A stretch of DNA of 59,484 nt, filler included, from Sphacelaria rigidula (taxonomy: Eukaryota), in assembly GCA_964200075.2 (NCBI GenBank). It is 4 parts of 4 records of this genome, joined end to end, with 100 filler letters (N's around TTAATTAATTAA, not from the genome) between each part and the next. Parts side by side here need not be neighbours in the genome. Positions count along the whole stretch, not along the records: positions 1 to 14,799 come from CAXNAA020002040.1; 3 more parts are not named here. The stretch is one strand, 5' to 3'. Positions 1 to 58,710 of the stretch are shown piece by piece; position 1 is the stretch's first letter; each line of letters opens with the position of its first letter. Under the pieces are notes generated by a model, which made no database searches, had not been told where the DNA came from, and worked only from the letters and a program-made list of their open reading frames with translations. Made by a program: the position numbers and the translations under genes.

Positions 1-1365
1 AAAAAAAAAAAAAAAAAAAAAATATACACCCCCCCCCAAAAAAAAACACCCCACCCCCCCCCCCCCCCCCCCCCCTCCGCAATCACCCACCGATGGTGAG
101 ACACCCATGAGGCAGTGTATAAATATATAGGCCGTGGCTGTCTCTGGAAGTAACGATACCAGAAAATGAAGCAAGTTGTTGCAGGCTGCCATCCAAATGC
201 AAGATGATCAGAACGCTTCGGGCCGAACAATCTTAGCATGATGCAGCTCACCCTTCACACGACTCGCCGAGCACACCACGGGGTGCTTGGTGAATGATTG
301 CGAGCCTGGTCAGGCGAAAACCCGGCGTACTCCGTCCCGGCTTTGTAGGAATGCGAGGTCAATGGTTATATGACTACAAGTTGGGCCGGCAGTAGATCCC
401 ACATTCTCTCTCAGCACTGAAACTTCTCAAGTTTTCCAAATCAGCGTGACTTGAGCATATCGATGTGAACTGCAGACTAACCTGTTAACACACGGCACCG
501 CCGCTGCTTGATTGACGCAGTTTTGGCGATGATGTTATTGTACTGCATTGAGTACCGGGTACGTCTCTTGCCATTGCGTGACAACGTGTCTGGAGACGTT
601 TCGTTCCACAAAATGCGATGGAATTACGGTAGGCCGTTGCGCCGCATAGGCACACGCACAACCAGCATGCCCAGGCAAGAGCACACTGGTAGTATTGCAA
701 GATGGCATCAAGCTCGTCATAAACTCCATAATGGGAGAGAACCTCCAAGCCAACTGTTGTATATCACCGCACGAGGGAGAAGTAATACTTGAAACTGCGC
801 TATACCCCCCCCCCCCAAAAGCAAGACCGTCACCAAAGTATCGAGACCATGTGCAACCCGGAGGTACGAGAGATTATGCACGATTAGTATGCACAAAAAA
901 GTTATTGTCGTGTCGGGATTCGAACTCGTGATCTGTGTAATTTGAGGCTGTTGTATCCGTTTGACCAAAAGGGTCACACAAAGAGTACGACGCGAAGCCC
1001 AATTTTACGTCTTTTGGGCTGAAACTTCACGAGGATGTGGTTGACGCAAGTGCCCGTATGTGCCAGAGCGTTGTCATCGTTCTTTTATCGATTTTTGAGG
1101 AAGTTACAGCATTTCCCCTGTTTTTGCTGAAATTTCAACTCGCTCTAACTTCCTGTTTGTTTGTTTTATCCCGTGACGCCCCTTAGAGGCTTGAGCGGAT
1201 TGATGATAAAAATATCGTGTCAAAATTTCAGCACCCAACTCTTCGAATTGACAATAGCATCTCCTCTCTTCGTTTAAAAATCATTGACGACCGGCCCAGC
1301 TCGTATGGCATGCAAGATTATGGATACACCCAATCCCCGACTCGCCGCCGCGAAACGAAACTTAC

Positions 1366-1834
1366 CTGGTAAAGCAACCGTACCCGCCCCAACCGATCCT
1401 TTCCTCTTCCCCACAAGCACACACCCAGGCATCTTAGGCGTGGTCACCAAACACGCCACACCGACCCTAACAACCCCTTCCCTATGCGACGCAGCCACAG
1501 CCGCCATAGCCATCGCAGCGCTTGGAATCGACCGCACTGGCGAACTCCCCATTCCTCGTGTTCCACCCGGAAGAACTAGTTGCGGCGGGGGCGGGTGCAT
1601 CGGTGAAGGTGTACTGGAGGCGGCGCTTTGCGGGGGGGGACGGAAGGGGGAAATCCCCTGGTTTTGGCGGGAAGGAGATAACGCCTCGGCTGCGCGGGCC
1701 ACGGCTTCGACCGAGTCGGGGCTTTCTTCTTCCTCCTCCTCCTCCTCGCCGCCGTCCCGCTTTTGCAGCTGCTCCTCTGCTTTTCCTTCGGCTTGTGCTA
1801 ACGCCTTGTTGCCTTGTTTTTGCTGGTCATCATC
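1366..1834 (-). CDS. Exon 6: acidic/Pro-rich linker plus N-terminal half of a Nudix hydrolase (NUDT15/AtNUDX1/MutT-like)
   Basis: Acceptor ATACAG|GAT, donor CCAG|GTAAG. Encodes VRVGVACLV...CVLVGKRKGSVGAGTVALPG, which matches the family pattern VGV...VLLGKRKGSHGAGTWALPGG just before the Nudix box. The Nudix-box exon was not found in the contig. Confidence 0.75.
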
Positions 1835-2140
1835 CTGTATTGAATTAGTAAAAATATTAGATTACAAGGCAGACATGCAACCGAGCAAATACGACAAATT
1901 AAAACGTCTTGGTTAAATCCTGTGAACTTCGAACACCTCACGTGTCTCTCCTGATATTTTGCCCGCTCGACAATCTCGTGACTTTCCGGAGGACGCTCTT
2001 GTAGACGTAGCTGGACGCTTACCGGACATGATGAGTCGGCACGAGTGATGCAAAACTAAAAACTCCAGCCAACAGAGGTCCGGCAACCATTGACACGGGG
2101 GAAGAGGGGCGGTGCACGTTCATTCTGTTCATGGATTATC

Positions 2141-2475
2141 CAAAGGTTGTGTTGTGTAGGGTACGGGTACGCGCGGTAGAGTGTGACAATCTCTTGCAGA
2201 ACTTATAGAACTGTCGGGTACGCGCATGAAGGTCTTACAGAACTTACAGAACATTTCGAGGTAGGGTATGAACGTCGTACAGAAACCCTTACCCGCACCC
2301 GGGTAGTCCTGCAAGGGTATGCCCGTGCCCCGAGTACGGAGGCTTGCAGAAAGTACAGAACTGTCGGGTAAGGGTATGAGATGCTTATAAACCTCACATA
2401 ATTGTCGGGTACGGGTGATACCCAGGTGATGACCCCGGGTATACAGAGAATCGTACCCCACTGAACAGAACCTTG
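2141..2475. mobile_element. Non-autonomous TIR element (P/hAT-like) in an intron, with internal CGGGTA / TACAGAACT repeats
   Basis: Imperfect TIR CAAAGGTTGTGTTGTGTAGGGTAC ... GTACCCCACTGAACAGAACCTTG; flanks GATTATC / GATTATT. Confidence 0.6.
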
Positions 2476-2931
2476 GATTATTTCGAGGGTCGGAGTAAAT
2501 AATTCGTCTGGCAATTTCTTGATTTTAATGTGATTGATTTGCACCGTACGAACCAAATCTCAGGCTTCGTTCTCAGCGTTGCAGCCAGGAACGCGTAGCT
2601 CAGGCATGTGGAATGGCGCAAAAATTGCGTGGAGACCTTTTTGACCAGCGGGCAACTTTATCCTCTCTGCCGAGCAACCATGCCTGAAGATTCGCGCATT
2701 TGTTGATTCGAACCGGCGATGATTGGTCCGAACCGTGGATTACTTCCCCTTGTATATTGACGCCTTCGCATATGCGCAGCCACATGCACTCACTGGCGTG
2801 GTCACCGTTTTACTACTTCACAATACTACGATCGCAATATGCTACTATTCGCGGCATATCCTCAAGTAAGTATGACACGGCATATGCGTCGCAAGGGCCT
2901 GCTCTTATGCATGAATTTCCTCTCGATTCAA

Positions 2932-3050
2932 CCCTTTTGGGACCCACTGACGATTTTTGTTTTTTGTGAATCGGCATCATTTTGACTTGAAAATGACTGA
3001 AAACGATGCCGATTCACAAAAAACAAAATCGTCAGTGGGTCCCAGAAGGG
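2932..3050. mobile_element. piggyBac-like hairpin MITE
   Basis: Near-perfect inverted arms CCCTTTTGGGACCCACTGACGATTTT...GAATCGGCATC; CCC...GGG termini flanked by TCAA / TTAA. Confidence 0.7.
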
Positions 3051-3491
3051 TTAAAAACAATTATTTCACGACCCTCATCCGTTCAGCGCACAACCAGGGG
3101 TGGGTTTGGACGACAAAAGGGTAAATATCTGGCTGACTGATTAGATTTGATGACCGGATTTTTCGCACATCAACTGCTCCTAGAGGAATCCAGCCCAGGC
3201 CACAAGATACATGCACCCAAGGTGAAAACAACATATGTTGTCGCAGAGGAAATATCGAGGAAGGGAAAAGACTAAATTATTACAGAACAAACACTAGATT
3301 CAAGCATCCTACTCTACCTAACCTGACCCACTGTATGCTAGTTTGACCATGTAGGCGTGGCGGCCATGTTGACCACAAGAAACGACATGATCTGGCTCGC
3401 GGCTGCAGCAAAGACACAACCACAATCATGTCGAGAACGAAAATTCACGAAAAAAAAAAAGACACGTGAGAAGTAAAAATATATAACTCAC

Positions 3492-3566
3492 CCCTTCCTC
3501 TACGAGCCAATCCTCCAAGCTCCACGCCTCCTGACTGCTTTCAAAAGCGGTAATCCAGTTGTTCGC
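3492..3566 (-). CDS. Exon 5 (ANNWITAFESSQEAWSLEDWLVEEG)
   Basis: Acceptor TTTTTTGACAG|, donor GGG|GTGAGT. 75 nt, phase 0-0. Confidence 0.65.
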
Positions 3567-3902
3567 CTGTCAAAAAATGGGGGGCAGGGATGAGGGGAAG
3601 CCCCCGGAGAACAAACGTACGACGAGAAGGTAGTGGGTGGCGAGGAAACAGAAAAAAAGGGAAGGTAATACATTTCAAATCGTCAAAACGAGGTTACCAC
3701 TGAAGCCTAACGTTTATCGAACGCCATCATAATACACCACTGTTCGGATCTTTCTAGGTCAAACGAGCGTTCACCTTTTGACGGCGAGGGTAGGTCATCT
3801 GGTCGTGCCGTAAATTCTCACGTGAACTTGACGCTGACTCAACAGGTCACCTATGCTCGCCGTCAAAGGGTTACGCGAGGGTACAGCACGGCAAAAGCTC
3901 AC

Positions 3903-3998
3903 CTGAGACAGCGAGCCTTCTGTGTCCGCTAGGGTGAGAGAAAATGCTGACACCTGCGACAGTCCCGCCATGCCCATATCCTGGCTCATCTCCGGTTC
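3903..3998 (-). CDS. Exon 4 (EPEMSQDMGMAGLSQVSAFSLTLADTEGSLSQ)
   Basis: Pyrimidine-rich acceptor TTTCCCCCGTTGCTACCACGACCAG|, donor CAG|GTGAGC. 96 nt, phase 0-0. An alternative acceptor at 4059 also exists. Confidence 0.55.
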
Positions 3999-4099
3999 CT
4001 GGTCGTGGTAGCAACGGGGGAAATATTCGACATTCATACTCAGTTACCAAGATCAACAACTGTCAGCAACGCCAAACATATTGAAGCACTTACAAATTG

Positions 4100-4800
4100 A
4101 CATCATAACAACAACAGCAGCAACAATAGCTACAACGATAGCAACAACCCCAGCAAATACAGGATGTGTGGTTATTACAGGCGTGGTAATACAATCTTTG
4201 GCTTAGATGACAATCTCGCGATGGAGGGAGTCGATGAAAGCATGGTGAAGTATCACTATTACGAGGGAACATTGTTAGCACGAGTGGATACATGAACGGA
4301 CGTGACTCGAGCGTTCACGGGTCGATCTCAACAAACAATAGATAGCTCGGATGAACCACAAGGTCCACGTGATGAACGGCCAGCGACAAAAAAAAAAAAA
4401 ACGTACTCAAGAAGTTGAGGCCCACTTCGTGAATTTTTGCTGTTGGCGTCGCTCCAAACCTGGCTACTACTTTTCTAATACTCCTGATTTTAATAACAAT
4501 GTTCCCCCGTGATAGTGCGAGAAGCACGCGAGTCATACAGCTCGATAGTGTACTGGTTACTTTCGAAAATATTGCTCAATCCCAACGGAACAGCAACAAC
4601 AACAACAGATACAGGATGAGTGGTTGTTACAGGCGCGGTGATACAAGCAAGGCCTCGTGACGGGGTCGATGAAGGCATGGTGGAGTATGATTAGTGCGAG
4701 AAGCACGTGAATCATACAGCCCAACATTGCACCATTTACTTTCAAAATCTTGTTCAGCCCCTACGAAATAACAACGAAAGCAACAAAAACAACGAAAACG
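4100..4800. repeat. Diverged intronic direct repeats (CAA-rich tract followed by ATACAGGATG.GTGGTT.TTACAGGCG; TAGTGCGAGAAGCACG)
   Basis: Blocks recur near 4155 and 4610, and near 4513 and 4692. Confidence 0.55.
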
Positions 4801-5383
4801 TAAATCAGTACAAGCAGAGTGCCACAACTCACACGTAAACACTGTATCCGCATAAGACTGCTATCGTTCTCTAACCCAAGTTCGCGGAGCAGCACGGGCT
4901 GCTTGATCCTACAAAATGAGCGCAAAGTAGGGTCCGGACAGCTAGCAAGCTTCTGGCCGTGGGGGTTGACCTCTCGTGGATATCATCTAGGGGATCAAAA
5001 TTTCGGAAGCCCAGGAACGCCAGGAACATGCGGCCAAAACATGAAAAATATGCGGGATGTAAGGTTGCCACTGGAGCACGGCAATTTTTCGTTGCCTCAG
5101 AAAAACATGCAACCAATCTGCTACACATGGGGTATACTCCGAAAACGTCGGCCATACAACGTTCGACTTCAACGAGGGAAGGGGACCGCCAAACCCTTCT
5201 TGCAATTATTAAGGCAAGCAAGCACGGCAGAGAGAAGATGGACTAATGATAATACAAGAAGGAAAAAAAATCCTGTGTTGACCTTCCACTTGTACGATCC
5301 CGGCTCATGCGCCGACATACACGGAAAGGTTTACACTGGCGTCCAGAATAGGTGGGATGACAACACACACACACAACACATAC

Positions 5384-5509
5384 CTTATATATCGATTCTT
5401 GAGAGCATGGTTCCAGAAGCGCAGCCTCCAGGCTAGCCGCTACTCCTTGGCCTGCTGCGTCCCCCCCCGCGCAATCACCCAGCGAACCTGCCCGTGGTCG
5501 ACCGCAAAC
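5384..5509 (-). CDS. Exon 3 (VCGRPRAG...LLEPCSQESIYK)
   Basis: Acceptor GTGCAG|, donor AAG|GTATGT. 126 nt, phase 0-0; the other two frames contain stops. Confidence 0.6.
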
Positions 5510-6193
5510 CTGCACGCCACAACACCAAACTTTTTTTTACATTATTTTACAGTCGGACAGATCACGATTCGTCTGAAAATTACTCCTTCTCAGTATACTG
5601 AACCGGGTCATGATGCACATCAGTTGGCCCCCCTTTCTCATGTTTACTCCTTTCAACGCCGGACGCCGAGCACACCGAGTACCGCAAAGGTTGCGCTTTC
5701 GGCTTTTCTGACTCCGCCGTCACATATTTCGCGTTTTTGGACCAACAGATTCGAAATTCTTCTTTGATTGGTTGTTTCGGATAGATTGTCATCCGTCCGA
5801 TGTGTGCATTATTTGGTCGTACTGTTCTGTATCCCCTTCTCCCTCGGGACGACCCTGTAGTCTGCCGGGATCACCGTATCTCTGCGTCGGTGCTAGCCCG
5901 CCAATTTTTCTCAACGAGCATCGACTCACCACCCGCACACTTCGTCCATTTTGGTCCAAAGTTCATTCTCATGGTCCAGATCAAGGGTATACAATAGTCG
6001 TACGAGTACGAGTACCATCGGGGTTTCTCTCTAGTGCGGTCATACCGAGCCGACAAGTCACCGCGTTATAGTGGGACCACCGTTGCAACTGTAAATTTAA
6101 CATGGATAAAGTGCATGAGGCTCAAAATCGCGGAGGGAAAGAAAACCCCGTCTACTGGATGCTTTTTCCGTTGCAAGGTTGACTGCTGCATAC

Positions 6194-6327
6194 CTGCTGC
6201 GTCGGCTGGGGCTGCTGCATTTGCTGGTGCTGGGGTGATGCTGGCGGCTGCTGCAGTAAAGGGAGAACTTGCTGCTGCTGGTGGTGGTGTAGCTGTAACC
6301 CTTGCGCCTGAGCGTGTGCCTGCATCA

Positions 6328-6358
<31 letters not shown>

Positions 6359-6499
6359 ATTGGTAGGCTGTGATTGGGTGAGCTGCGACGTGCTGAAGAG
6401 GGAATTGTCATTGTTCTGATATTTCTCGATGATAGCCTGCTGCCGCTTGTAGTCCCTCGCCAGTTGTACCATTGCCGTATTGGCGTCTGCCAACATTGT
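6194..6499 (-). CDS. Exon 2: coiled-coil continuation (TMLADANTAMVQLARDYKRQQAIIEKY) plus poly-Q
   Basis: Acceptor TGCGCAG| at 6500/6499, donor CAG|GTATGC at 6194/6193. 306 nt, phase 0-0, contains a CAG tract. Confidence 0.75.
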
Positions 6500-6729
6500 C
6501 TGCGCAGAATACATGTACGAAACGTCCAACGCAGCAACCAGTAAAAAAGAAATAAGAGGAAAAATTATCGCTGGCTCAACTTCAATTCTGACGACCACGA
6601 ATTACACCATTTATCGCATCTTACTACGACGTTGATTCCGAATCGTAACATTTCTGTTATCGGGTACGTACGAATTTCAACAGGTCCAACAGCGGTTAGA
6701 ACGAAATGAAGGGTGTACCTTACATTCGT

Positions 6730-6910
6730 AATCATGTACAAAAAGTACTTGACTGAGCTTGCTTGACGAAAGTTTACGCGGTGCGGGAGTGCTGACCCAA
6801 TCCGCGAGAACAACACGCGAGGCGTGTAACAGGGAGAGATGGGTCGATCCCTTGAGACCATTAGAGTACGGACTCGTCCCGAGGAAGGGGAGGGGTTCGG
6901 AGTATGACAA
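6730..6910 (+). mobile_element. Body of a tRNA-derived SINE family (head degenerate)
   Basis: Shares GCGGGAGT(GT)GCTGACCCAATCCGCGAGA...GAGAGATGGGT.GATC.CTTGAGACCA...TCCCGAGGAA with 14490-14650. Confidence 0.6.
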
Positions 6911-7672
6911 GTATACACAGATGTATACATAAGGCGCTTATAAACAACATGCACCAGCACAGCACGGGTCGGAATAGAAACGCGCGGGGCGGCCAATACC
7001 ACCGCGGGCACCCGCAAACCTTGAAAAACAAAAACCGAGTCACCGCGCGTACAGATTATTCCTGCAGTACACACAATTGTTCAACATACTCCATCAGGCG
7101 AACAAACCCTGATGTACAGGAACAAAAAAACACCGTCGATCACCAATGAAACCCCATCTATAGCGTGCAACCTTTCAAATTCCTCCTTTCGTAAGAAGCT
7201 TCTTGGCCAGCCTACAACACTGTCTTACTCGGCACATCACCTAACCCCCTCTACAGTTCAGGATAAGGAGCAGGTAAGGTAGGTGGGCATGGGAGTTTTA
7301 AACCGAGTCTGGGTTCAAATCACAGTCTCGCGGGGGGGTATACTCATGATCTTGCATGCCATCGTCATATGGCCACTGGGGGGGCGGAGGGGTGAAGTCA
7401 CGATGAAGTTTGCGCGAGAAGCTGACTTGTGCGTATGTAGAACGCCAAAATGTTGCGCACTGGAATAATCCCCTCTTATTTTCATATCCTCTAAAAATTG
7501 CTTTGCAACATGGCTGGTAACTTAAATGCTCTTTTCTCCTCGCCCTCCCCATTGCTCCGTTTCGAAATGGATGCGTGACGAACGGTAAAACGACTAAGGC
7601 AAGGAAGAACTGGGTACGTCCCCCGCCCGCCCACCCGCCCGCCCATCCCTACCTGAAACCGCCTAATCTTAC

Positions 7673-8434
7673 CCTCGCTTGTGCCAGTTCACGCTCCATT
7701 CTCTCCCGATACACCTTGTGTGTCTCGGGGTTCCGAATGTATTTTTTCTTCGGTTTCTTCGCTGGCGGAGGGCCTTCACTACTCCCACCGCCCCCCGCAT
7801 CAGGCCCCTTCTTTCCGTCGCCTTGCCCTTCAGCCGACCCTGAAGACTCGGCGGCAACGCCGCCGCTGCGATCCATCCCATTCCCATGCCCCGCTTGACC
7901 GTTAGCTGCCGCCGCTGCAGCTCCGCCACTGCTGCCATTGTCCCCACCGGGGGTCCCTCGCGTACTAGCTCGCTGCTTAGAGCTGGCGCCTCCTGCGGTC
8001 GAGTTTGAGACCGGCGGTTTTACGTCCCCGTTGGATGACGTGGCCGACGGAGAGGTTGAGGTTCGATTCGCCGACGAACCGGCACTGGCTGCGCCGCGTG
8101 ATTTTCGGGAGCCCCCGCGGCTGGACCGCCGTCGACCTCCGGCGCCGCCAGAGCTTGCCGTCTGTGCTTTCCCTCCCGAGCCGGAATTGTGTTGTCTGCT
8201 GTTGTCACAGTTCGCAGCGTGGTCAGCGGCCAAGATTTGGTTGGCGAGATCTTCACACCCAACGTCTACTTCTAGGGACTGCTGGGATTCTTCCCTTGAA
8301 TCTACGCCACCGTACCCGCCTCCGGAAGCACGGCAAGCGGCGGCGTGTGACTGAGCTGAGGAAGACGAGGAACTTCCCCTCGTGGTCGCGCCCATAGAGT
8401 GGCTCCGCGAAGATGGGGCTCTCGAGCGCTTCAT
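7673..8434 (-). CDS. Exon 1 of a putative bZIP-like/polyQ/Nudix gene (Gly/Ser-rich region, then basic region KKPKKKYIRNPETHKVYRERMERELAQAR)
   Basis: ATG at 8434 opens 254 codons to a canonical donor AGG|GTAAGA at 7673/7672. The basic region has bZIP-like N-x7-R spacing and an NLS-like KKPKKK. Confidence 0.7.
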
Positions 8435-9431
8435 GTGACGTGTAATCGCCCGGAAAACGCGGGGATATATATGCTTTGCGGAGATACGAAGAGTCTCTGA
8501 AGGAGCGGCAGAGAGTTGACAAGAACCTTGTTTCGTGGTTACGGTAGTGCAGCGAGGGAAAGGTTGCAGGAGTGCGGGGAGATAAAGGTTGCAGCAGTCT
8601 TGGAATCTCTTTTGTTGTTATTTGCCGAATGGGTTCATCGGGGTGGTCTTCGAGATCACTGGGCCTTTGCCCTTGAATAAATACGCCTCTAGCTTTTTTG
8701 GTGGCGGGCCTGAAGACTTTAGAGAAGCCATTCTCTGTTATTCTTACCAATACCAACAGGAAGAGACATCATTAAAAATTGGACAATGTGTCCTGACTTT
8801 TTCACACCCTGGATAATGACAATATATCACGTTGTCAAAAAGTCTAGATCTTGGATCCTATTGCCAATATCCACAATCTGGAACGAGACCACATTCGGGA
8901 GGAGATATCACGGCTCAAACGTTCCGCCCGCGCGTCATCAGGATCAATCAAGAATGCTGGAGATGACTTTCATTTCGGGATTGAAATAACTTATGACGAA
9001 GACTAGACTATCGCAATCAACCGCCATGCCAGTAGCCTATTGCTGGTGTAGTACGTGCCGTTTCGGGAGAAAGAAACTCGCCGGTTTACTGATCTACGGT
9101 TGACATCCTTTGTTACGTTTCAATACTATATGTGTTGTGGTTCGGGTCGTTGTACACATGTCCACTAGTTCACACATGATCCAGCGGAAAATACGCAAGC
9201 CTTTCCCTGGTTCAAAGCTGGTCGTACGTGAGAAACGCCTCTTTTGCCGTGCAGCTCAAGGATGGTCATCTGAGATTTGCTCGGTTCAGAGGTGGCCATG
9301 TGAGAGCTTGCGCTGCACGTGAAAAGCCTTGAAGAAAACTTTCGCAGTCAACCAATTGGTTTACTCGTTGCGCGACCACGCTAATTGTTTCGAGTATTGG
9401 GTTGATAACATTCCCGCGAATACTGAGTGTG

Positions 9432-9535
9432 GGGCGGGGGGGGGGGGGGGGGGCAGGAATTTTGGGGGGGGGAAAAAGGCAGGGGGAAAAGGGGAAAGCG
9501 GGGGCCGGGGGACGGGGGGGGGCAAANNNNTGGGG

Positions 9536-9572
<37 letters not shown>

Positions 9573-9601
9573 GGGGGGGGGGGGGGGGAGGGGGGGGGGG
9601 G
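9432..9601. repeat. Poly-G tract with an internal NNNN (low-quality region)
   Basis: Seen directly; N at 9527-9530. Confidence 0.85.
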
Positions 9602-10930
9602 ACACGAATTTTGAGTGCTGGAAAATGGCATGCAGTATAGGGATAGACGGACGCCAGGTGCACGTGGGGGCTAAACGGACTTTCTTCAAAAGGTATTGCA
9701 GTAGCTGCAGCCGAACAGGAATCCTCTCGGGCGGCACTGCCAAGTGGCGGGGGTCATGGCATGGCCGATAATGACCGATAGGTACTGTTGGCTTCGCGCC
9801 GACGTTATATGACGCCACATACGCGGCGTTGGGTTTGACATTTTTTTTCATGATATGTAGATAGAGATACATGGCTACAAGTACTGCTGGCGATATTGAT
9901 GTTCACGACGTCTGTAGGTGTTACGTTAATAATGGCATGATGGGGCGAGGACATGAATAAATAACGATAGCGAATATGCGGTACTCTTTTCGACTCCAAA
10001 TCCCCACATCTCTTACAGGCACCGTCTCTGTCAAACGCAACTATTCCGAAGTCACGAAAACAGTTCCTCCAACCGGCGTCAAGCCGGAGAGGCCTAGGTG
10101 CTCAAGAGATTAACCGGTTGACCTTCAGTCCCCTCAGATCGCTCAATATGGCTTATGGTCAAATTCATCTACGGATCTGTTGTTTTACAAGTGGCACAGC
10201 ACCCCTACTTACCTGAGCGGGTGGATGTTACGTATGTGTACGGAAATTCGTGCATGTGCACCCCTGGCCCCTGGCCGCTTATTGGGCGATTTCTAGGAGA
10301 ACTTCGTGCATCATTCCACCAAATGAGAACCACTAAAATCGACACCCTACCCCTGTTTAGGCGCGTTGCCCGACCTGTAAATTTCTGGAAACACACTTGA
10401 CTGATCTGGGAAGCATTCGCTGCCGCTCGGGGAACCTGAACGCCCCCCGTCAAAAACATCGAAACCCCTGAACTCTAAGAGGGATAAACTGTTCCGAAAC
10501 GATGCTAAAGGGCCGACGGGATAAATACAAAGTTTTGTTTGAAGTGCGCGACTAGTTTTCCTGGGGTTCGGAAAATCGGAATACGCAGTTGAATAGAGCG
10601 GAGGGACAATGCTCATGTACGCATGATAATGCCGTGCGACATGATGTGCAGCCACCTCTCCTTTCCTTCATAGCGTGTTTCCTCCTCCCCCCTCTCACCG
10701 TCAACCATTTAAAGAAACGCCCGGCCAGCACTAACGGGACTCTGGGCGTGTTTCGACATCACGCTCGAGCTGTAATAGTGAAATCTATCCTCGGCATGGC
10801 AACGCGTCGAGTGCTTGTACTTGGGTGTCGAAACGGTTGGGATTGATTGTGCTGGAGAATCGAGTGAGGTGCAAGCGTAAGAAGAACCATGAACGAAAAT
10901 GATGATGTTTAGTGTGGAATCTGCCATTTT

Positions 10931-14799: not shown

Positions 14800-14899
14800 N
14801 NNNNNNNNNNNNNNNNNNNNNNNNNNNNNNNNNNNNNNNNNNNTTAATTAATTAANNNNNNNNNNNNNNNNNNNNNNNNNNNNNNNNNNNNNNNNNNNN
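14800..14899. other. Artificial contig spacer
   Basis: 44 N + TTAATTAATTAA (stops in all six frames) + 44 N. Confidence 0.97.
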
Positions 14900-15279: not shown

Positions 15280-17700
15280 AGAGGCAGGCGGGAAAGAAGA
15301 TCCGCGTTCCCGTTGGTTTTACCTGGACGGTGCTTAATGGTATACTGGTATGCTGTTAGAAACTCCAACCATCATTGTACACGAGGGTTGTGTTCACCAA
15401 CCTTAGCGAGTTGTTCAAGTGCTCCGTGATCCGTATAGATCTCGAAGGGCACGTGAAACAGATATTGTCGAAGGCGCTTAATGGCCCAAGTGATTACTCC
15501 ACCTTCCAGTTCTAGCGGGCTTCAATTGACCTCGTCGGGCAGGGTAGCGCGGCTGATATAAAGGATGGGTCGGACAGAGCCATCAAGCTGAGGTTGATTC
15601 AAAACTCCTCCAAATCCATTTGTGCTGGCGTCAGTATGGAGTTGCAAAAGGCGGGAGCCTTCTTGTACTGCCTCCCAATCAAGAAAGCAAAGTACGGGCT
15701 TTTCGGTAAGCGTCTTCAGTAATTCGCGGGTGATAGTCTCCATTTCTGTGGTGAAAGAAAACACAGCTCCTTCCTTCAGTAGATCAGTAAGGGGGTGAAT
15801 CCGTTTCGATAAATTCGGCAAAAAATTGCGGTAGTAGGATAGCCCACCCAACAATGAGCGAAGTTGAGAAATGCTAGTTGGCATCGGCAAATCAGTCATC
15901 GCCTTGGCTTTGTTTGTATCCGGATGCAGGCCTGCTGGCGAAATGGAATGCCCCAAGAGGTCCAACTTAGTCGCGCCAAGGCGAGCTTTGGATGGAGACA
16001 GTTTCAAATCGTGCGTACGTAGGCGAGAGAGAAATTCTCGTAGAGTGCGTATATGTGCAATAGGTGAGGCATCGAAAGCGATAGCGTCATCCCAGTATAT
16101 GCTGATGTGCTCGAGGCCCTCGGTGACGCGTTGTATTAAGCGTTGAAAGCATCCCAGGACAGTAGCGGCGCCTTGTGGCATCCGAAGCCACTCATAGAGT
16201 CCGGAAGAGGTGCAAAACGCCGTCAGTGGGACTGTGTCAGGGTTTATAGCATTCTGGGAAAATCCAGAGGCAAGGTCGAAGGTGCTGAATATTTTGCCTT
16301 CGCCTAAGGAGTCGAAGACTTCATCAATGCGGGGAGTCGGAAGTTTACCGACGACAGTGACGCGGTTCAACCGCTGATAATTCACGGTGACGCGTATGTT
16401 CCCATCCTTTTTGGGGACGACCACAAGTGGCGAGGCCCAAGGAGAGGAGAAATGTTGTATTAGTCCCGCTCCCAAATACGCATCCAAGATGGCGTTAACT
16501 TTCTTGGGAAGGATTGAGTTGGTACGGTATGGCCGAGAAGAAATCGGCGAGACACCGGGTTGGAGGTTAACTTCAAGGGGCAGTGTTTTGCAATGCCCAA
16601 GATCCGTCTTGGATCGGGAAAATCGGTCTTGGTACTGTAGCAGGACATCACTGAGTTCTTGGATGACTGCCGGTTCCCAGCCGGGCCCATGAAGGTCAAA
16701 ATTGATGTCGCGCATGTGTGGCGGCAGTTGGTTCTACACGTGCAAGAAACTATTCCGAGAATCTGGTGATAAGCGTTGAAGCACTTCAGCAGGAGGATCG
16801 AAATTTGACTGGGCAGGATCCACGGTGTGGACCTGCGGTGGAATCGCAGAGGTGAGGTCGAAATAGGGTTCATCGACACAATGGGCTGACTCCGCCGGAG
16901 ATGCGGCGTTTGGCGCGGCAGGCTCTGTGACGCACGTCTCGAGTGGGATGTGCATCAGGGGAGCAGCGGCGGTTCCTAAAACATCGCCGGGTTCCAACTT
17001 AGCATGGCCCGTAAGAGGGAGGAGTTGTTGTCCCGTCGACACAAAATGTTCTGTATCGGCTGGTGCGCCAATACGGGGTAATATTTCGGCAAGATCATGG
17101 CCCGTAAGTGCTGGCATTCCATTTCGGCAAACTAGTGCAACTTCGAGAAGTTGGGGGTCGTCGGAGAGTGTAATACCCACGCTACCGTTATATCGTAGGT
17201 GGTAAGCAGCTCCGGCTGCTTGGGGATTCTTTTGATAACCCAGGGCGCCGTGGAGAGTACCGAAGTGCTCGAGTTTGAATTCTCCACGCGGCGTGGAATG
17301 TGGCGTTTGTGGTGGAAGCGTGCGGTAGGTGCGTTTATTAAACCGCATATAGCTGTATCTGCCCAATAATATGGCGTGATGCATTGTGCTGTCGGGGACA
17401 ATGTATGCCCAGACTGCCAGGCTGGCAGATCGAGCGGTGTTGTGAAAGAATTGCACACTGAGTCGTACGGATTAACGTGTCGTCAGTGGTGCGGCAGAAT
17501 CACCAAAACCGCCCCACACGCGAGGTTTGGTGGTGGTTTCGCAAGCTGTAGTAGCAGTGCCAGTCTGTTTCACGTCTTTCCATCTTGATTCTGGAACACA
17601 TGTTTGCGGGCTGCCGCTGTCCAACAAGGATTCGCATTTCGTAAGCGTGATAGCGTTTGGACCGGAATGGATCGCAACGCGAGAAGTGAAAGTGGCCGGA
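15280..17700 (-). pseudogene. pol: Gypsy pol: aspartic protease (LLDSGSPQT), RT (SPWASPLVVVPKKDGNIR, FDLASGF, MPQG, IYWDD), RNase H (TDAST, YTDH, NADLLSRLP)
   Basis: ORFs 17472-17915, 16734-17456, 15522-16715 and 14844-15368. In-frame TAG/TGA stops at about 16734, 15522 and 15372. Confidence 0.93.
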
Positions 17701-29695: not shown

Positions 29696-29795
29696 NNNNN
29701 NNNNNNNNNNNNNNNNNNNNNNNNNNNNNNNNNNNNNNNTTAATTAATTAANNNNNNNNNNNNNNNNNNNNNNNNNNNNNNNNNNNNNNNNNNNN
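29696..29795. other. Artificial contig spacer
   Basis: 44 N + TTAATTAATTAA + 44 N. Confidence 0.97.
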
Positions 29796-44590: not shown

Positions 44591-44690
44591 NNNNNNNNNN
44601 NNNNNNNNNNNNNNNNNNNNNNNNNNNNNNNNNNTTAATTAATTAANNNNNNNNNNNNNNNNNNNNNNNNNNNNNNNNNNNNNNNNNNNN
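44591..44690. other. Artificial contig spacer
   Basis: 44 N + TTAATTAATTAA + 44 N. Confidence 0.97.
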
Positions 44691-56994: not shown

Positions 56995-58710
56995 CTACAC
57001 CGTCGATGAAGAATGGTTACTGCCATTGTTGAGGTAATGGCAGGCCACGGACTGAACATCCATTTTTCCTTGGTGGTTAACCCGCATCATGCCAGGTTGC
57101 AGAAATGGCACAATCTGTAGCGGCGGGCGCTTTCTGGTGACCATTTCATACGGCGACAGTCTTCCCGGGTTCGCCGTAGTAGCGGAACGATTGAATCCGT
57201 CCGCTGCCCACACCGCGGCCTCCAGCCACAGACGCTTCATGCTCTCCCCCAGGTGAGGTATGTCGTCGAAGCGGCACTCCGGGAACAGACGTCGCGCTTC
57301 GAGACGGGTTGTGTGGCCCCCCTTCATGACGCTCCAAATCGCATTTCCCACCACAGCGTTGTGCTTCGGAGTGTCGGGAGCAGAGTACTCACGACGAGTC
57401 GTTGCATCGTCGCAGAAGGCGCCAAAATCATTGGAGGTGAACTTGCCCCCGTTGTCCATGCGAAAACAACCGGGGGTACCGATGGCGCCGACGTCGGCGA
57501 TGAAGCGCTTCACCTTCGCCAGAGTGTCAGACTTACGTGCGAGGCCATAAACCTTCATGAAGCGCGATTTGCTGTCGACGCAGCCCAGCATTTGAGTTGA
57601 TGCACCCAGAGTACGAGGGTAGGGGCCTGTGAGGTCGAGATGAACCCTGCCAAGTGCAGTCTTTGCCCTCGTGCCCAGTGCTCGCGGAATACCTGTCCTC
57701 TGTCCCTTCGCTTCCAAATATCCCGCACATGGCGCCAGTAACCCCGTCAAAGTAATGCCCTGTCGTTTCGCAGTTTCTTGCAATAACGTCTCATGGATGT
57801 GGGGAAGGGAAACGTGAAAACAACTAATGTCGACTTCTTGTTTCGGTTTTCCAAATGAAAAGGGGTGAGAGCTGGGGGCAAGGACAGCAAGGGCCGTCCC
57901 GTTTTCAGCCTCAATTCCCATTCCTTCACTCAGAAAGCGCGGAAAAACATCTTGGGGAGGGGTCACGTCAAATCCAGCCATCAGAGCTTCATCCTTGAAC
58001 ACACTCAAGTCTGGGCAGTGGAGCCCTTGGACTGCACGGAGGGAACCAACACCGTTCGTGGTGGCAGGTACAACGCTTGCCTGTGAAACGGACTCTGTAC
58101 GCCAACACTTGAAGTCACAACGTTCGCTGGTGGAACGGACTGGACTTGAACGCTTGGGGGAGGGGAAGGAACAACACGTCCAGGTGAAGCGGACTGTACG
58201 CCAACACTTGAAGTCACAACGTTCGCCGGTGGAACGGACTGGACTCGAACGCTTGAGGGGGGGGGGAGGAACAACTACTGCTGGCACGGCAAGTGGGGTT
58301 TTTTGGTATGTTGGCGGTAATCGAGTGGCCCTTTGTGTTAAAGACCGCTCATTGCGATCGAAGCGAAGCTGGCCGTCAACCATATGTACCCCTGTTTCAG
58401 TCAAAAGTACATCCTGCTTTTTCTGCACTTGGTGCAGAGAAAAAAGGTTAACATGTATACCTTCAAGAACGTAAACATCAGTTAGCTGCACGCAAAATTC
58501 TGAGGACGCGCCGACGGATTTTGGGGCGGTGGAACTTGATATGTGAAATTTGAGCTTCGAACTCCCTACTGCTCGGACAGGGAGAACTGTTCCGTCCCCC
58601 ACGATCACGTGTTCATTTCCTTTCGGGGGGGCGGGGGGCGTAGATCAAACATACCACTCACTGAACCAGTGGTATGATGTGAAGCACCATCGTTCGCTAT
58701 CACTCCTCTG
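56995..58710 (-). pseudogene. pol: Copia protease plus integrase (rve)
   Basis: Degenerate NDGASHHTTG; HHCC-like HVSLPH...CAGY; VHLDLTGP, VDSKSRF, RMDNGGKF, YSAPDTPKHNAVVG (catalytic E replaced by G), LWLEAAVWA. Confidence 0.9.
58090..58262. repeat. Direct repeat (period 99 bp) in the Copia PR-IN linker
   Basis: TGTACGCCAACACTTGAAGTCACAACGTTCGC at 58096 and 58195; peptide KRSSPVRST.ERCDFKCWRT occurs twice. Confidence 0.9.

Follow-up and report, generated by a model that had tools for sequence, protein, structure and literature searches.

Does the brown alga Sphacelaria rigidula encode a transcription regulator that carries a Nudix hydrolase domain, or a hydrolase of a familiar kind with an unfamiliar extension? 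The question is raised by a gene at positions 1366..8434, minus strand, of the 59,484-nucleotide stretch of assembly GCA_964200075.2 analyzed here (the window). The original prediction described it as a fusion of a basic leucine zipper (bZIP)-like DNA-binding region, a polyglutamine (polyQ) tract, a cluster of S-Q motifs and a NUDT15-type Nudix hydrolase. We find that the region holds the first four-fifths, from the 5′ end, of a single expressed nuclear gene, with a product of at least 611 amino acids (aa). Spliced contigs and orthologues bear out that a coiled coil, the polyQ tract, the SQ cluster and the Nudix domain belong to one gene, while the DNA-binding region found no support. On balance, we lean towards a NUDT15-type hydrolase with a targeting and regulatory tail, and not a sequence-specific DNA binder.

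Six exons of one expressed gene

Sequencing runs under the same organism code comprised four low-share runs marked, as a guess, as RNA (X1-X4) and four high-share, DNA-like runs. Contigs of X1, X2 and X3 (RNA-like) and of X5 (DNA-like) were placed on window positions 100-9400; the RNA label itself being a guess, we treat X1-X3 as RNA because their contigs are spliced. All six predicted minus-strand exons were verified (8434-7673, 6499-6194, 5509-5384, 3998-3903, 3566-3492, 1834-1366): AG precedes and GT follows every internal exon boundary on that strand, and coordinates, translation and RNA-like contigs agree on the positions. Exons 1-5 measure 762, 306, 126, 96 and 75 nt, all divisible by three, and with the 469 nt of exon 6 they join into 1834 nt, or 611 stop-free codons, across phase-0 junctions as claimed. 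Exon 6 closes in phase 1, its GT donor falling after the first base of a codon, and the gene therefore continues past it.

8435..8526, minus strand: 5′ untranslated region (UTR), to the limit of the RNA-like contigs (contig ends; no upstream ATG in the stretch)
7673..8434, minus strand: exon 1, 254 codons; ATG, S/G/A-rich mostly disordered region, basic patch, start of the long helix (translation, GT donor, joint 6499/7673 in three of three RNA-like runs)
6194..6499, minus strand: exon 2, 102 codons; second part of the coiled coil, invariant motif, Q-rich tract (translation, RNA joints, alignments)
5384..5509, minus strand: exon 3, 42 codons; linker (translation and RNA joints)
3903..3998, minus strand: exon 4, 32 codons; SQ cluster with MSQ, LSQ and LSQ (translation; region conserved in Hapterophycus and Ectocarpus)
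3492..3566, minus strand: exon 5, 25 codons; acidic/aromatic motif with SQ, ..SQEAWSLEDWL.. (translation, RNA joints, relatives)
1366..1834, minus strand: exon 6, 156 codons plus 1 base; acidic run, P/A-rich linker, start of the Nudix domain, phase-1 GT donor (translation and RNA joints)

The RNA-like contigs are joined at 1833/3491, 3565/3902, 3997/5383, 5507/6192 and 6499/7673, always with CT..AC on the plus strand, that is, GT..AG on the minus strand. Once the stated cut offsets are applied, these joints are exactly the five proposed introns of 1657, 336, 1385, 684 and 1173 nt. All five were seen in three of three RNA-like runs and in none of the one DNA-like run, X5, which covers the whole stretch at ∼27×. 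The RNA-like runs have zero depth in the intron bins 4765-5075, 5698-6008 and 6942-7252. A rival acceptor at 4059, said to lead to a stop in exon 5, is absent among the joints listed, which leave aside 45 weaker ones.

Each of X1, X2 and X3 has one contig linking exons 6-5-4-3-2 and a second linking exons 2-1; the two end on either side of a CAG repeat at 6320-6367, within exon 2, that no single contig bridges. Independent support for the exon 1/2 join comes from homology to distant family members, since the junction-spanning aa 220-320 of the spliced protein align to residues 16-112 of a compact relative, P0021 (E 3.4e-12), and also to P0019 (E 3.2e-7) and P0163 (E 9.8e-6). At the 5′ end, contigs reach 8526 in X1 and X3 and 8493 in X2, and the ATG at 8434 is the first downstream of 8526, the outermost transcript evidence. 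At the other end, the contig with exons 2-6 has ∼2.2 kb past exon 6 (record positions 1-2198) that could not be placed on window positions 100-1364, and a six-frame search of the window turned up no Nudix-box peptide; the remainder of the Nudix domain therefore lies outside the window, along with the stop codon and the 3′ UTR. We estimate the full product, with these exons, at ∼730-800 aa.

A FEELG peptide near 1230 (minus strand) was considered as the tail of a Nudix box and rejected, having no G-x5-E or R-E upstream. Window positions 1-80 hold long A, C and G/T homopolymer runs, which sit where the sequence of the Nudix gene breaks off and may be a contig end or low-quality sequence.

An ordinary NUDT15/NUDX1 enzyme at the C-terminal end

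The end of exon 6 encodes the beginning of a Nudix domain:

1366..1492, minus strand: first strands of a NUDT15-type Nudix fold, to ..ALPG just before the Nudix box (NUDT15 match)

Residues 115-156 of exon 6 (42 residues) match residues 8-48 of NUDT15 (7b67_A; E 1.5e-6), and all five PDB matches to this exon at E ≤ 0.01 are NUDT15. The exon carries the NUDT15-like stretch V-G-V-G..V-L-x-G-K-R-K-G-S-x-G-x-G..L-P-G. A Pfam scan reported no NUDIX domain (PF00293) on the exon 6 fragment by itself and placed one above the cut-off in 10 of 11 relatives. Searching with exon 6 recovered three brown algal orthologues, a partial model from Hapterophycus canaliculatus (P0001) and two from Ectocarpus (P0002, P0003). 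The Ectocarpus models run into a full Nudix domain with an intact Nudix box, and the Hapterophycus model stops just after the box. An intact box in orthologues makes catalytic activity of the domain probable.

The subfamily label given to this domain was right, as sequence and fold both lie nearer NUDT15/NUDX1 than MTH1. An Ectocarpus orthologue matches NUDT15 at E 1.8e-31, Arabidopsis NUDX1 (AtNUDX1; 5gp0/6dby) at 1.9e-28, the rose geranyl-diphosphate hydrolase (6ypb) at 8.6e-23 and MTH1-type enzymes at ∼6e-7. The AlphaFold model of P0021 superposes on NUDT15 5bon with a template modelling (TM) score of 0.84 by target and 39-41% identity, and Foldseek ranks 1-22 for this model are all NUDT15 or NUDX1, the plant enzymes with TM 0.77-0.86. 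Human NUDT15 (MTH2; 5bon, 7b67) is the best match in both sequence and fold, with nearly identical strands before the box. These comparisons make the enzyme part a standard NUDT15/NUDX1 subfamily member, one of the hydrolases that act on nucleoside or other diphosphate-linked compounds.

The rest of the protein is what sets it apart. Human NUDT15 is a stand-alone domain of 164 aa that lacks the conserved coiled-coil/SQ module described below, whereas the S. rigidula protein has a long extension of at least 570 aa, mostly disordered, before the domain; plant NUDX1 enzymes, whose roles concern 8-oxo-dGTP, dihydroneopterin triphosphate (DHNTP) and geranyl diphosphate, have ∼150 aa and no extension. 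We searched 1.84 billion representative proteins with the Hapterophycus protein using phmmer and obtained 975 matches at E ≤ 1e-3. Among the 150 matches listed, 98 are at most 200 aa long (median 171.5 aa), in agreement with the view that NUDT15-type enzymes are usually small and stand-alone. One match, from the scallop Argopecten irradians (P0009), has two tandem NUDT15-like Nudix domains in 311 aa, both with intact boxes.

The extension: basic patch, predicted coiled coil and S-Q motifs

Upstream of the linker and the enzyme, the spliced protein contains the following elements:

7733..7759, minus strand: basic patch KKPKKKYIR, aa 226-234, resembling a nuclear localization signal (NLS) (aligns to the KKRRT/KKKNET patch of relatives)
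7673..7732, minus strand: coiled-coil helix, part 1, aa 235-254, from NPET (heptad register; predicted helix 236-253)
6419..6499, minus strand: coiled-coil helix, part 2, aa 255-281 (a/d heptads over about six heptads in 13 aligned sequences)
6383..6409, minus strand: family-invariant motif D-x-S-L-x3-S-Q (DNSLFSTSQ, aa 285-293; alignments of 17 and 13 sequences)
6194..6358, minus strand: Q-rich/polyQ tract with CAG repeat (translation; 25 Q in aa 301-350)

Across the family, five basic columns are followed by an invariant Thr, an amphipathic helix and then the D-x-S-L-x3-S-Q motif. In an alignment of 17 sequences, the D, L, S and Q of the motif and an Ala earlier in the helix are invariant; the same four motif residues are invariant in all 13 sequences of a second alignment, as is a Tyr near the helix end. 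The consensus for an NLS is K-K/R-x-K/R, and the patch may well be one.

We consider a dimerizing or partner-binding coiled coil to be a likely part of the core, as conserved a/d heptads run over several turns of one long predicted helix. Hydrophobic columns recur seven apart in the 13-sequence alignment (13, 20, 31, 38, 45, 52 and 41, 48, 55). In the AlphaFold model of P0021, helix 32-77 is a single 46-residue rod with a predicted local distance difference test (pLDDT) score of ∼90; the D-x-S-L-x3-S-Q motif is disordered (pLDDT ∼50), and the SQ/acidic region forms weaker short helices. A single-sequence AF2 model of exon 1 left 171 of 254 residues below pLDDT 50, its only confident helix being 236-253, which begins past the basic patch, at the residue next to the Asn. 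A homodimer prediction run without an alignment on two copies of the 73-residue P0021 module scored 0.18 against a mark of 0.32, which speaks neither for nor against a dimer. The coil had been said to lack canonical Leu heptads, which is right only in part, as the a/d heptad is conserved over about six turns.

The window protein holds ten S-Q/T-Q sites, including 292, 295 and 297 and five in aa 392-441 (392, 403, 412, 429, 441). An SQ/TQ cluster domain is recognized by at least three such sites within ∼100 residues, a density found in the window protein and in 11 of 12 relatives (at least three SQ/TQ per 100 aa). All 12 relatives have more sites than expected from composition, by 1.7-3.6 times. 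Many of the S-Q sites are hydrophobic-S-Q, the preferred context of ATM/ATR-type kinases. One study treats three SQ within 37 aa as a putative cluster domain (PMC8254504).

No Pfam family matched the module in the 11 relatives scanned, and the ESM Atlas yielded no usable match to the first 165 residues of P0021. A profile of the module searched against the PDB gave 12 matches at E ≤ 10, the best being keratin at E 0.14, and thus no significant solved relative. We therefore regard the module as a candidate new short domain, by these profile and alignment comparisons.

The patch and coil do not resemble a bZIP

The N-x7-R spacing had suggested a bZIP-like DNA-binding region, which Pfam, signature, register, conservation and PDB profile all failed to bear out. 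For the profile tests, single exon peptides and relatives carrying the region uninterrupted stood in for the spliced junction peptide. None of the six exon peptides matched the bZIP families (PF00170/PF07716) at E ≤ 10, nor did any of 11 such relatives at E ≤ 1, 10 of which match only NUDIX above threshold. The basic region of bZIP proteins follows the signature N-x2-A-A-x2-[C/S]-R, with the first zipper Leu ∼10 residues past the signature Arg. The stretch in S. rigidula, NPETHKVYR, has no Ala-Ala and no Cys/Ser; the N and the R are its sole matches to the signature, and the Asn is followed by a helix-starting Pro. Zipper leucines would be expected at R+10+7k, where the protein has A, A, L, Q and Y, and the best heptad d positions (L, L, M, Y, I) start from R+7, three residues off the bZIP register.

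Conservation points the same way. The Asn column holds N in two and R in four (the oomycetes) of the six sequences that cover it, and columns 14-20 after the Asn are mainly acidic in oomycetes; three of the five columns 15-19 are 67-71% acidic. A DNA-contacting basic helix would not tolerate such change. Basic columns in the family alignment are confined to 7-11. The PDB profile search found only keratin and other generic coiled coils, none of its 12 matches being a bZIP. With no profile match, an unfilled signature, the wrong register and an unconserved basic stretch, bZIP identity was rejected. Lineage-specific or non-specific binding of nucleic acids may nonetheless occur in brown algae, judging by the composition of their patch and helix start.

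An architecture shared from oomycetes to brown algae

The architecture had been presented as undescribed. We found no paper on it in the literature on NUDT15/Nudix in brown algae or oomycetes and on Nudix-bZIP fusions, and in a diatom Nudix paper (PMC13515168) bZIP occurs only in the reference list and NUDT15/NUDX1 goes unmentioned. It is, however, not confined to S. rigidula: it is stramenopile-wide and sits unnamed in public protein sets. Orthologues that keep the coil and the Nudix domain together, which the original prediction had proposed to look for, come from oomycetes and from brown, xanthophyte, phaeothamniophyte and pinguiophyte algae.

The closest of these, Hapterophycus P0001, has the coil, polyQ, SQ region and Nudix start in a single chain and aligns collinearly with the spliced window protein over aa 246-611 (46% identity, E 2.3e-81). 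More distant members align in two blocks, the module and the Nudix domain. Regular expressions for the module (D/E-x-S-L..S-Q) and for the Nudix box both matched in 9 of 159 stored proteins, and further proteins with both parts were recognized by eye. Brown algal sources are Hapterophycus and Ectocarpus, along with a partial Laminaria model that covers only the SQ/acidic-to-Nudix part. The other ochrophyte sources are Tribonema gayanum (Xanthophyceae), Phaeothamnion confervicola and Pinguiococcus pyrenoidosus, and four oomycete genera are represented by Aphanomyces euteiches, Phytophthora idaei, Globisporangium ultimum and Albugo candida. Uncharacterized "Nudix hydrolase domain-containing proteins" of Ectocarpus siliculosus (CBJ29960.1), A. 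euteiches, P. idaei, A. candida, T. gayanum and Pinguiococcus are orthologues or other members of the family and arrange their parts identically, from basic patch through coiled coil, D-x-S-L-x3-S-Q and SQ/acidic region to NUDT15-like Nudix domain.

The compact oomycete proteins have only 297-335 aa, so the conserved core is small. Relative to the other stramenopile members, the S. rigidula copy adds a ∼225 aa S/G/A-rich head, the polyQ tract and a P/A-rich linker. The polyQ tract is missing from oomycete, Tribonema and MMETSP members, which marks it as a lineage-specific expansion outside the conserved core. Judged by these comparisons, the polyQ tract, the linker and, probably, the head are brown algal, lineage-specific inflation, and the core of the extension is an ancient stramenopile module.

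Searches with the 5′ exons on their own were less productive. The exon 1 peptide, compared with longer proteins, matched nothing at E ≤ 0.1 among 8000 scored candidates, and residues 1-47 of exon 2 matched one fragment only (P0004). Public brown algal models are split or shortened (P0002, 299 aa; P0003, 381 aa; P0004, 202 aa; P0006, 433 aa) and, compared with the S. rigidula copy, lack exon 1 and sometimes exon 2. E. siliculosus CBJ29960.1 (P0006) begins at a Met within the last part of exon 1 and passes over the counterpart of exon 2, and the others start in later exons or read into intron sequence.

A tree of Nudix domains was built from 72 rows with near-duplicates removed by hand; it includes 8 of 11 labeled module-bearing proteins, as P0019, P0023 and P0090 were excluded by the length filter. 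The module needs six changes on the free tree, the starred branches force only one, and 15 of 500 shuffles were as low, which is compatible with one origin of the module or with several. Outside the family proper, the diatom Proboscia inermis has a NUDT15-like protein (P0160) with a coiled-coil-looking N-terminus of ∼110 aa and no D-x-S-L..S-Q; this may be a diverged or an independent diatom extension.

Repeats and remnants around the gene

Intron 5 contains a ∼130 nt palindrome at 2927-3055, with arms 2927-2964/3018-3055 that are 89% complementary and inner arms 2955-2983/3000-3028 that are 97% complementary. Its bin (2899-3209) has a DNA contig depth of ∼50,000, where unique sequence has ∼27, and the RNA-like runs contain the palindrome too; it looks like a very high-copy repeat of the miniature inverted-repeat transposable element (MITE) type. 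Other intronic and flanking bins are dispersed repeats, with summed depths in the DNA run of 536,713 (100-410), 18,806 (2588-2898), 103,838 (6631-6941), 15,244 (7253-7563) and 12,612 (5076-5386), again against ∼27.

Further along the window, retrotransposon remnants occupy minus-strand open reading frames (ORFs) at 15522-16733 and 56995-58644. One of the two encodes reverse transcriptase and RNase H (PF00078, E 2.8e-19; PF17919; PF17917), and the other resembles an integrase core only weakly (PF00665, E 8.7e-5, short of the Pfam cut-off). Pfam matched none of nine further long ORFs between 9.5 and 59 kb, and a tRNA scan of 1-9500, covering a tRNA-like stretch near 930, found no gene. Paired runs of 44 N, 12 bases apart, lie at 14800-14899, 29696-29795 and 44591-44690; their regular spacing of ∼14.9 kb suggests masking or scaffolding and not biology. 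A run of 4 N at 9527-9530 lies inside a long C/G homopolymer tract near 9440-9640.

A working model and its rivals

We propose that the protein is probably a nuclear-targeted, dimeric NUDT15-like hydrolase. The basic patch would bring the enzyme into the nucleus, the coiled coil would reinforce a NUDT15-type homodimer or dock the enzyme on a partner, and the SQ cluster would open the protein to phosphorylation by ATM/ATR-type kinases. In this way, the breakdown of non-canonical or surplus (d)NTPs would be tied to DNA-damage or replication signaling. Localization, oligomeric state, phosphorylation and substrate are here proposals drawn from sequence and structural models. Human NUDT15 itself is a homodimer that prefers dGTP and 6-thio-dGTP, as stated in the part of the source used here (PMC4532830).

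Several observations weigh against this proposal. The same source describes the 8-oxo-dGTPase activity of human NUDT15 as only minimal, and NUDX1/NUDT15 enzymes also hydrolyze isoprenoid diphosphates according to the part of a preprint considered here (bioRxiv 10.1101/2023.11.29.569174); for both reasons, a "nucleotide pool" role is not secure. The window does not contain the catalytic Nudix box, so that activity of the S. rigidula copy is extrapolated from its orthologues. Low-complexity sequence rich in S and Q could account for part of the SQ enrichment, and the module-bearing proteins do not form one resolved clade in the Nudix-domain tree. The patch and helix start of brown algae are much more basic than the oomycete version, and a polyQ tract and acidic/aromatic motifs beside a basic patch and coil would also fit a transcriptional activator.

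This last possibility takes two forms. A bZIP-like transcription factor, in which the basic region and the dimeric coil bind DNA and the Nudix domain serves as nucleotide sensor or enzyme, strikes us as very improbable. Like bZIP factors, including the stramenopile aureochromes (bZIP plus LOV), the protein has a basic patch directly N-terminal of a heptad helix in a modular arrangement with a small-molecule-binding domain; the N-x7-R spacing is present in S. rigidula, and the polyQ and acidic/aromatic motifs resemble activation regions. There is also a bacterial precedent for a Nudix domain fused to a DNA-binding domain in the Nudix-related regulator NrtR, described in the part of its report drawn on here as using the Nudix domain as effector sensor with the DNA-binding domain C-terminal (PMC2330246). 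The NrtR Nudix domain is among the fold matches to the P0021 model, a weaker one (3gz8, E 1.9e-9). NrtR, however, is bacterial and of the ADP-ribose Nudix branch, with a winged-helix DNA-binding domain and a Nudix box that is often degenerate, whereas the S. rigidula protein is of NUDT15 type, has no detectable DNA-binding domain and has orthologues whose box is intact. It differs from bZIP factors in profile (0 of 6 and 0 of 11 matches), signature residues and a register that is three residues off; its Asn is Arg in four oomycete sequences, with the next seven columns mainly acidic there, its predicted helix begins after the patch, and its module profile finds generic coiled coils only (best E 0.14, 0 of 12 bZIP). 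Every bZIP test run was negative. The other form, a transcriptional co-regulator with no DNA-binding domain of its own, whose coil joins a second coiled-coil protein on chromatin, with polyQ and acidic motifs driving transcription and the Nudix domain as local enzyme or ligand sensor, we rate as rather improbable. The conserved coil, the NLS-like patch and, in brown algal forms, the Q-rich tract and acidic/aromatic short helices would suit it. Yet the polyQ is lineage-specific and outside the conserved core, no candidate partner protein is known, and the conserved pieces after the coil are S-Q motifs and not classic activation motifs.

The two remaining alternatives concern the substrate and the gene model. 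With the same architecture, the protein could be a NUDX1-like hydrolase of isoprenoid diphosphates or DHNTP whose extension serves localization or turnover only, with no DNA-damage link. We judge this unlikely while giving it some weight: AtNUDX1 and the rose enzyme are nearly as close as NUDT15, NUDT15 binds geranyl monophosphate (7r0d), and the preprint cited above reports, in the part considered, hydrolysis of isoprene pyrophosphates by NUDT15. An NLS-like patch and a conserved SQ cluster are nevertheless easier to explain for a nuclear, damage-linked enzyme. That a neighboring Q-rich coiled-coil gene and a small Nudix gene were joined on paper or by read-through is, finally, hardly credible. 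The split or shortened public models and the unbridged CAG repeat at 6320-6367 would allow it, but exons 2-6 share one contig per run and exons 1-2 another, both stopping inside exon 2 at the repeat. Moreover, coil and Nudix domain occur in a single chain in Hapterophycus and in nine or more distant relatives, including the 297-335 aa oomycete proteins, and the P0001 alignment is collinear over aa 246-611.

Implications for stramenopile NUDT15 enzymes

Returning to the nuclear NUDT15-like hydrolase, a bolder version of this model would make the patch, the six-heptad coil and the D-x-S-L-x3-S-Q/SQ cluster a stramenopile-wide, checkpoint-controlled domain, switched by ATM/ATR, that delivers a NUDT15-type hydrolase to chromatin or to sites of replication and repair. 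We hold this to be distinctly unlikely; as a still bolder sub-case, the more basic helix start of brown algae could have gained nucleic-acid binding. If true, the model would provide a direct physical link between DNA-damage signaling and nucleotide-pool cleaning, and to our knowledge such a checkpoint-controlled NUDT15 targeting domain has no described counterpart in animals, plants or fungi.

For annotation, the public brown algal models are truncated or mis-spliced, and RNA evidence allows the 5′ half that they lack (exon 1, plus exon 2 in one model) to be restored. No new class of algal transcription factor is added by this gene. NUDT15/NUDX1 enzymes have otherwise been studied as small free-standing proteins, and the maintenance of the module from oomycetes to kelps suggests that in stramenopiles NUDT15 activity is placed and controlled, not merely present.

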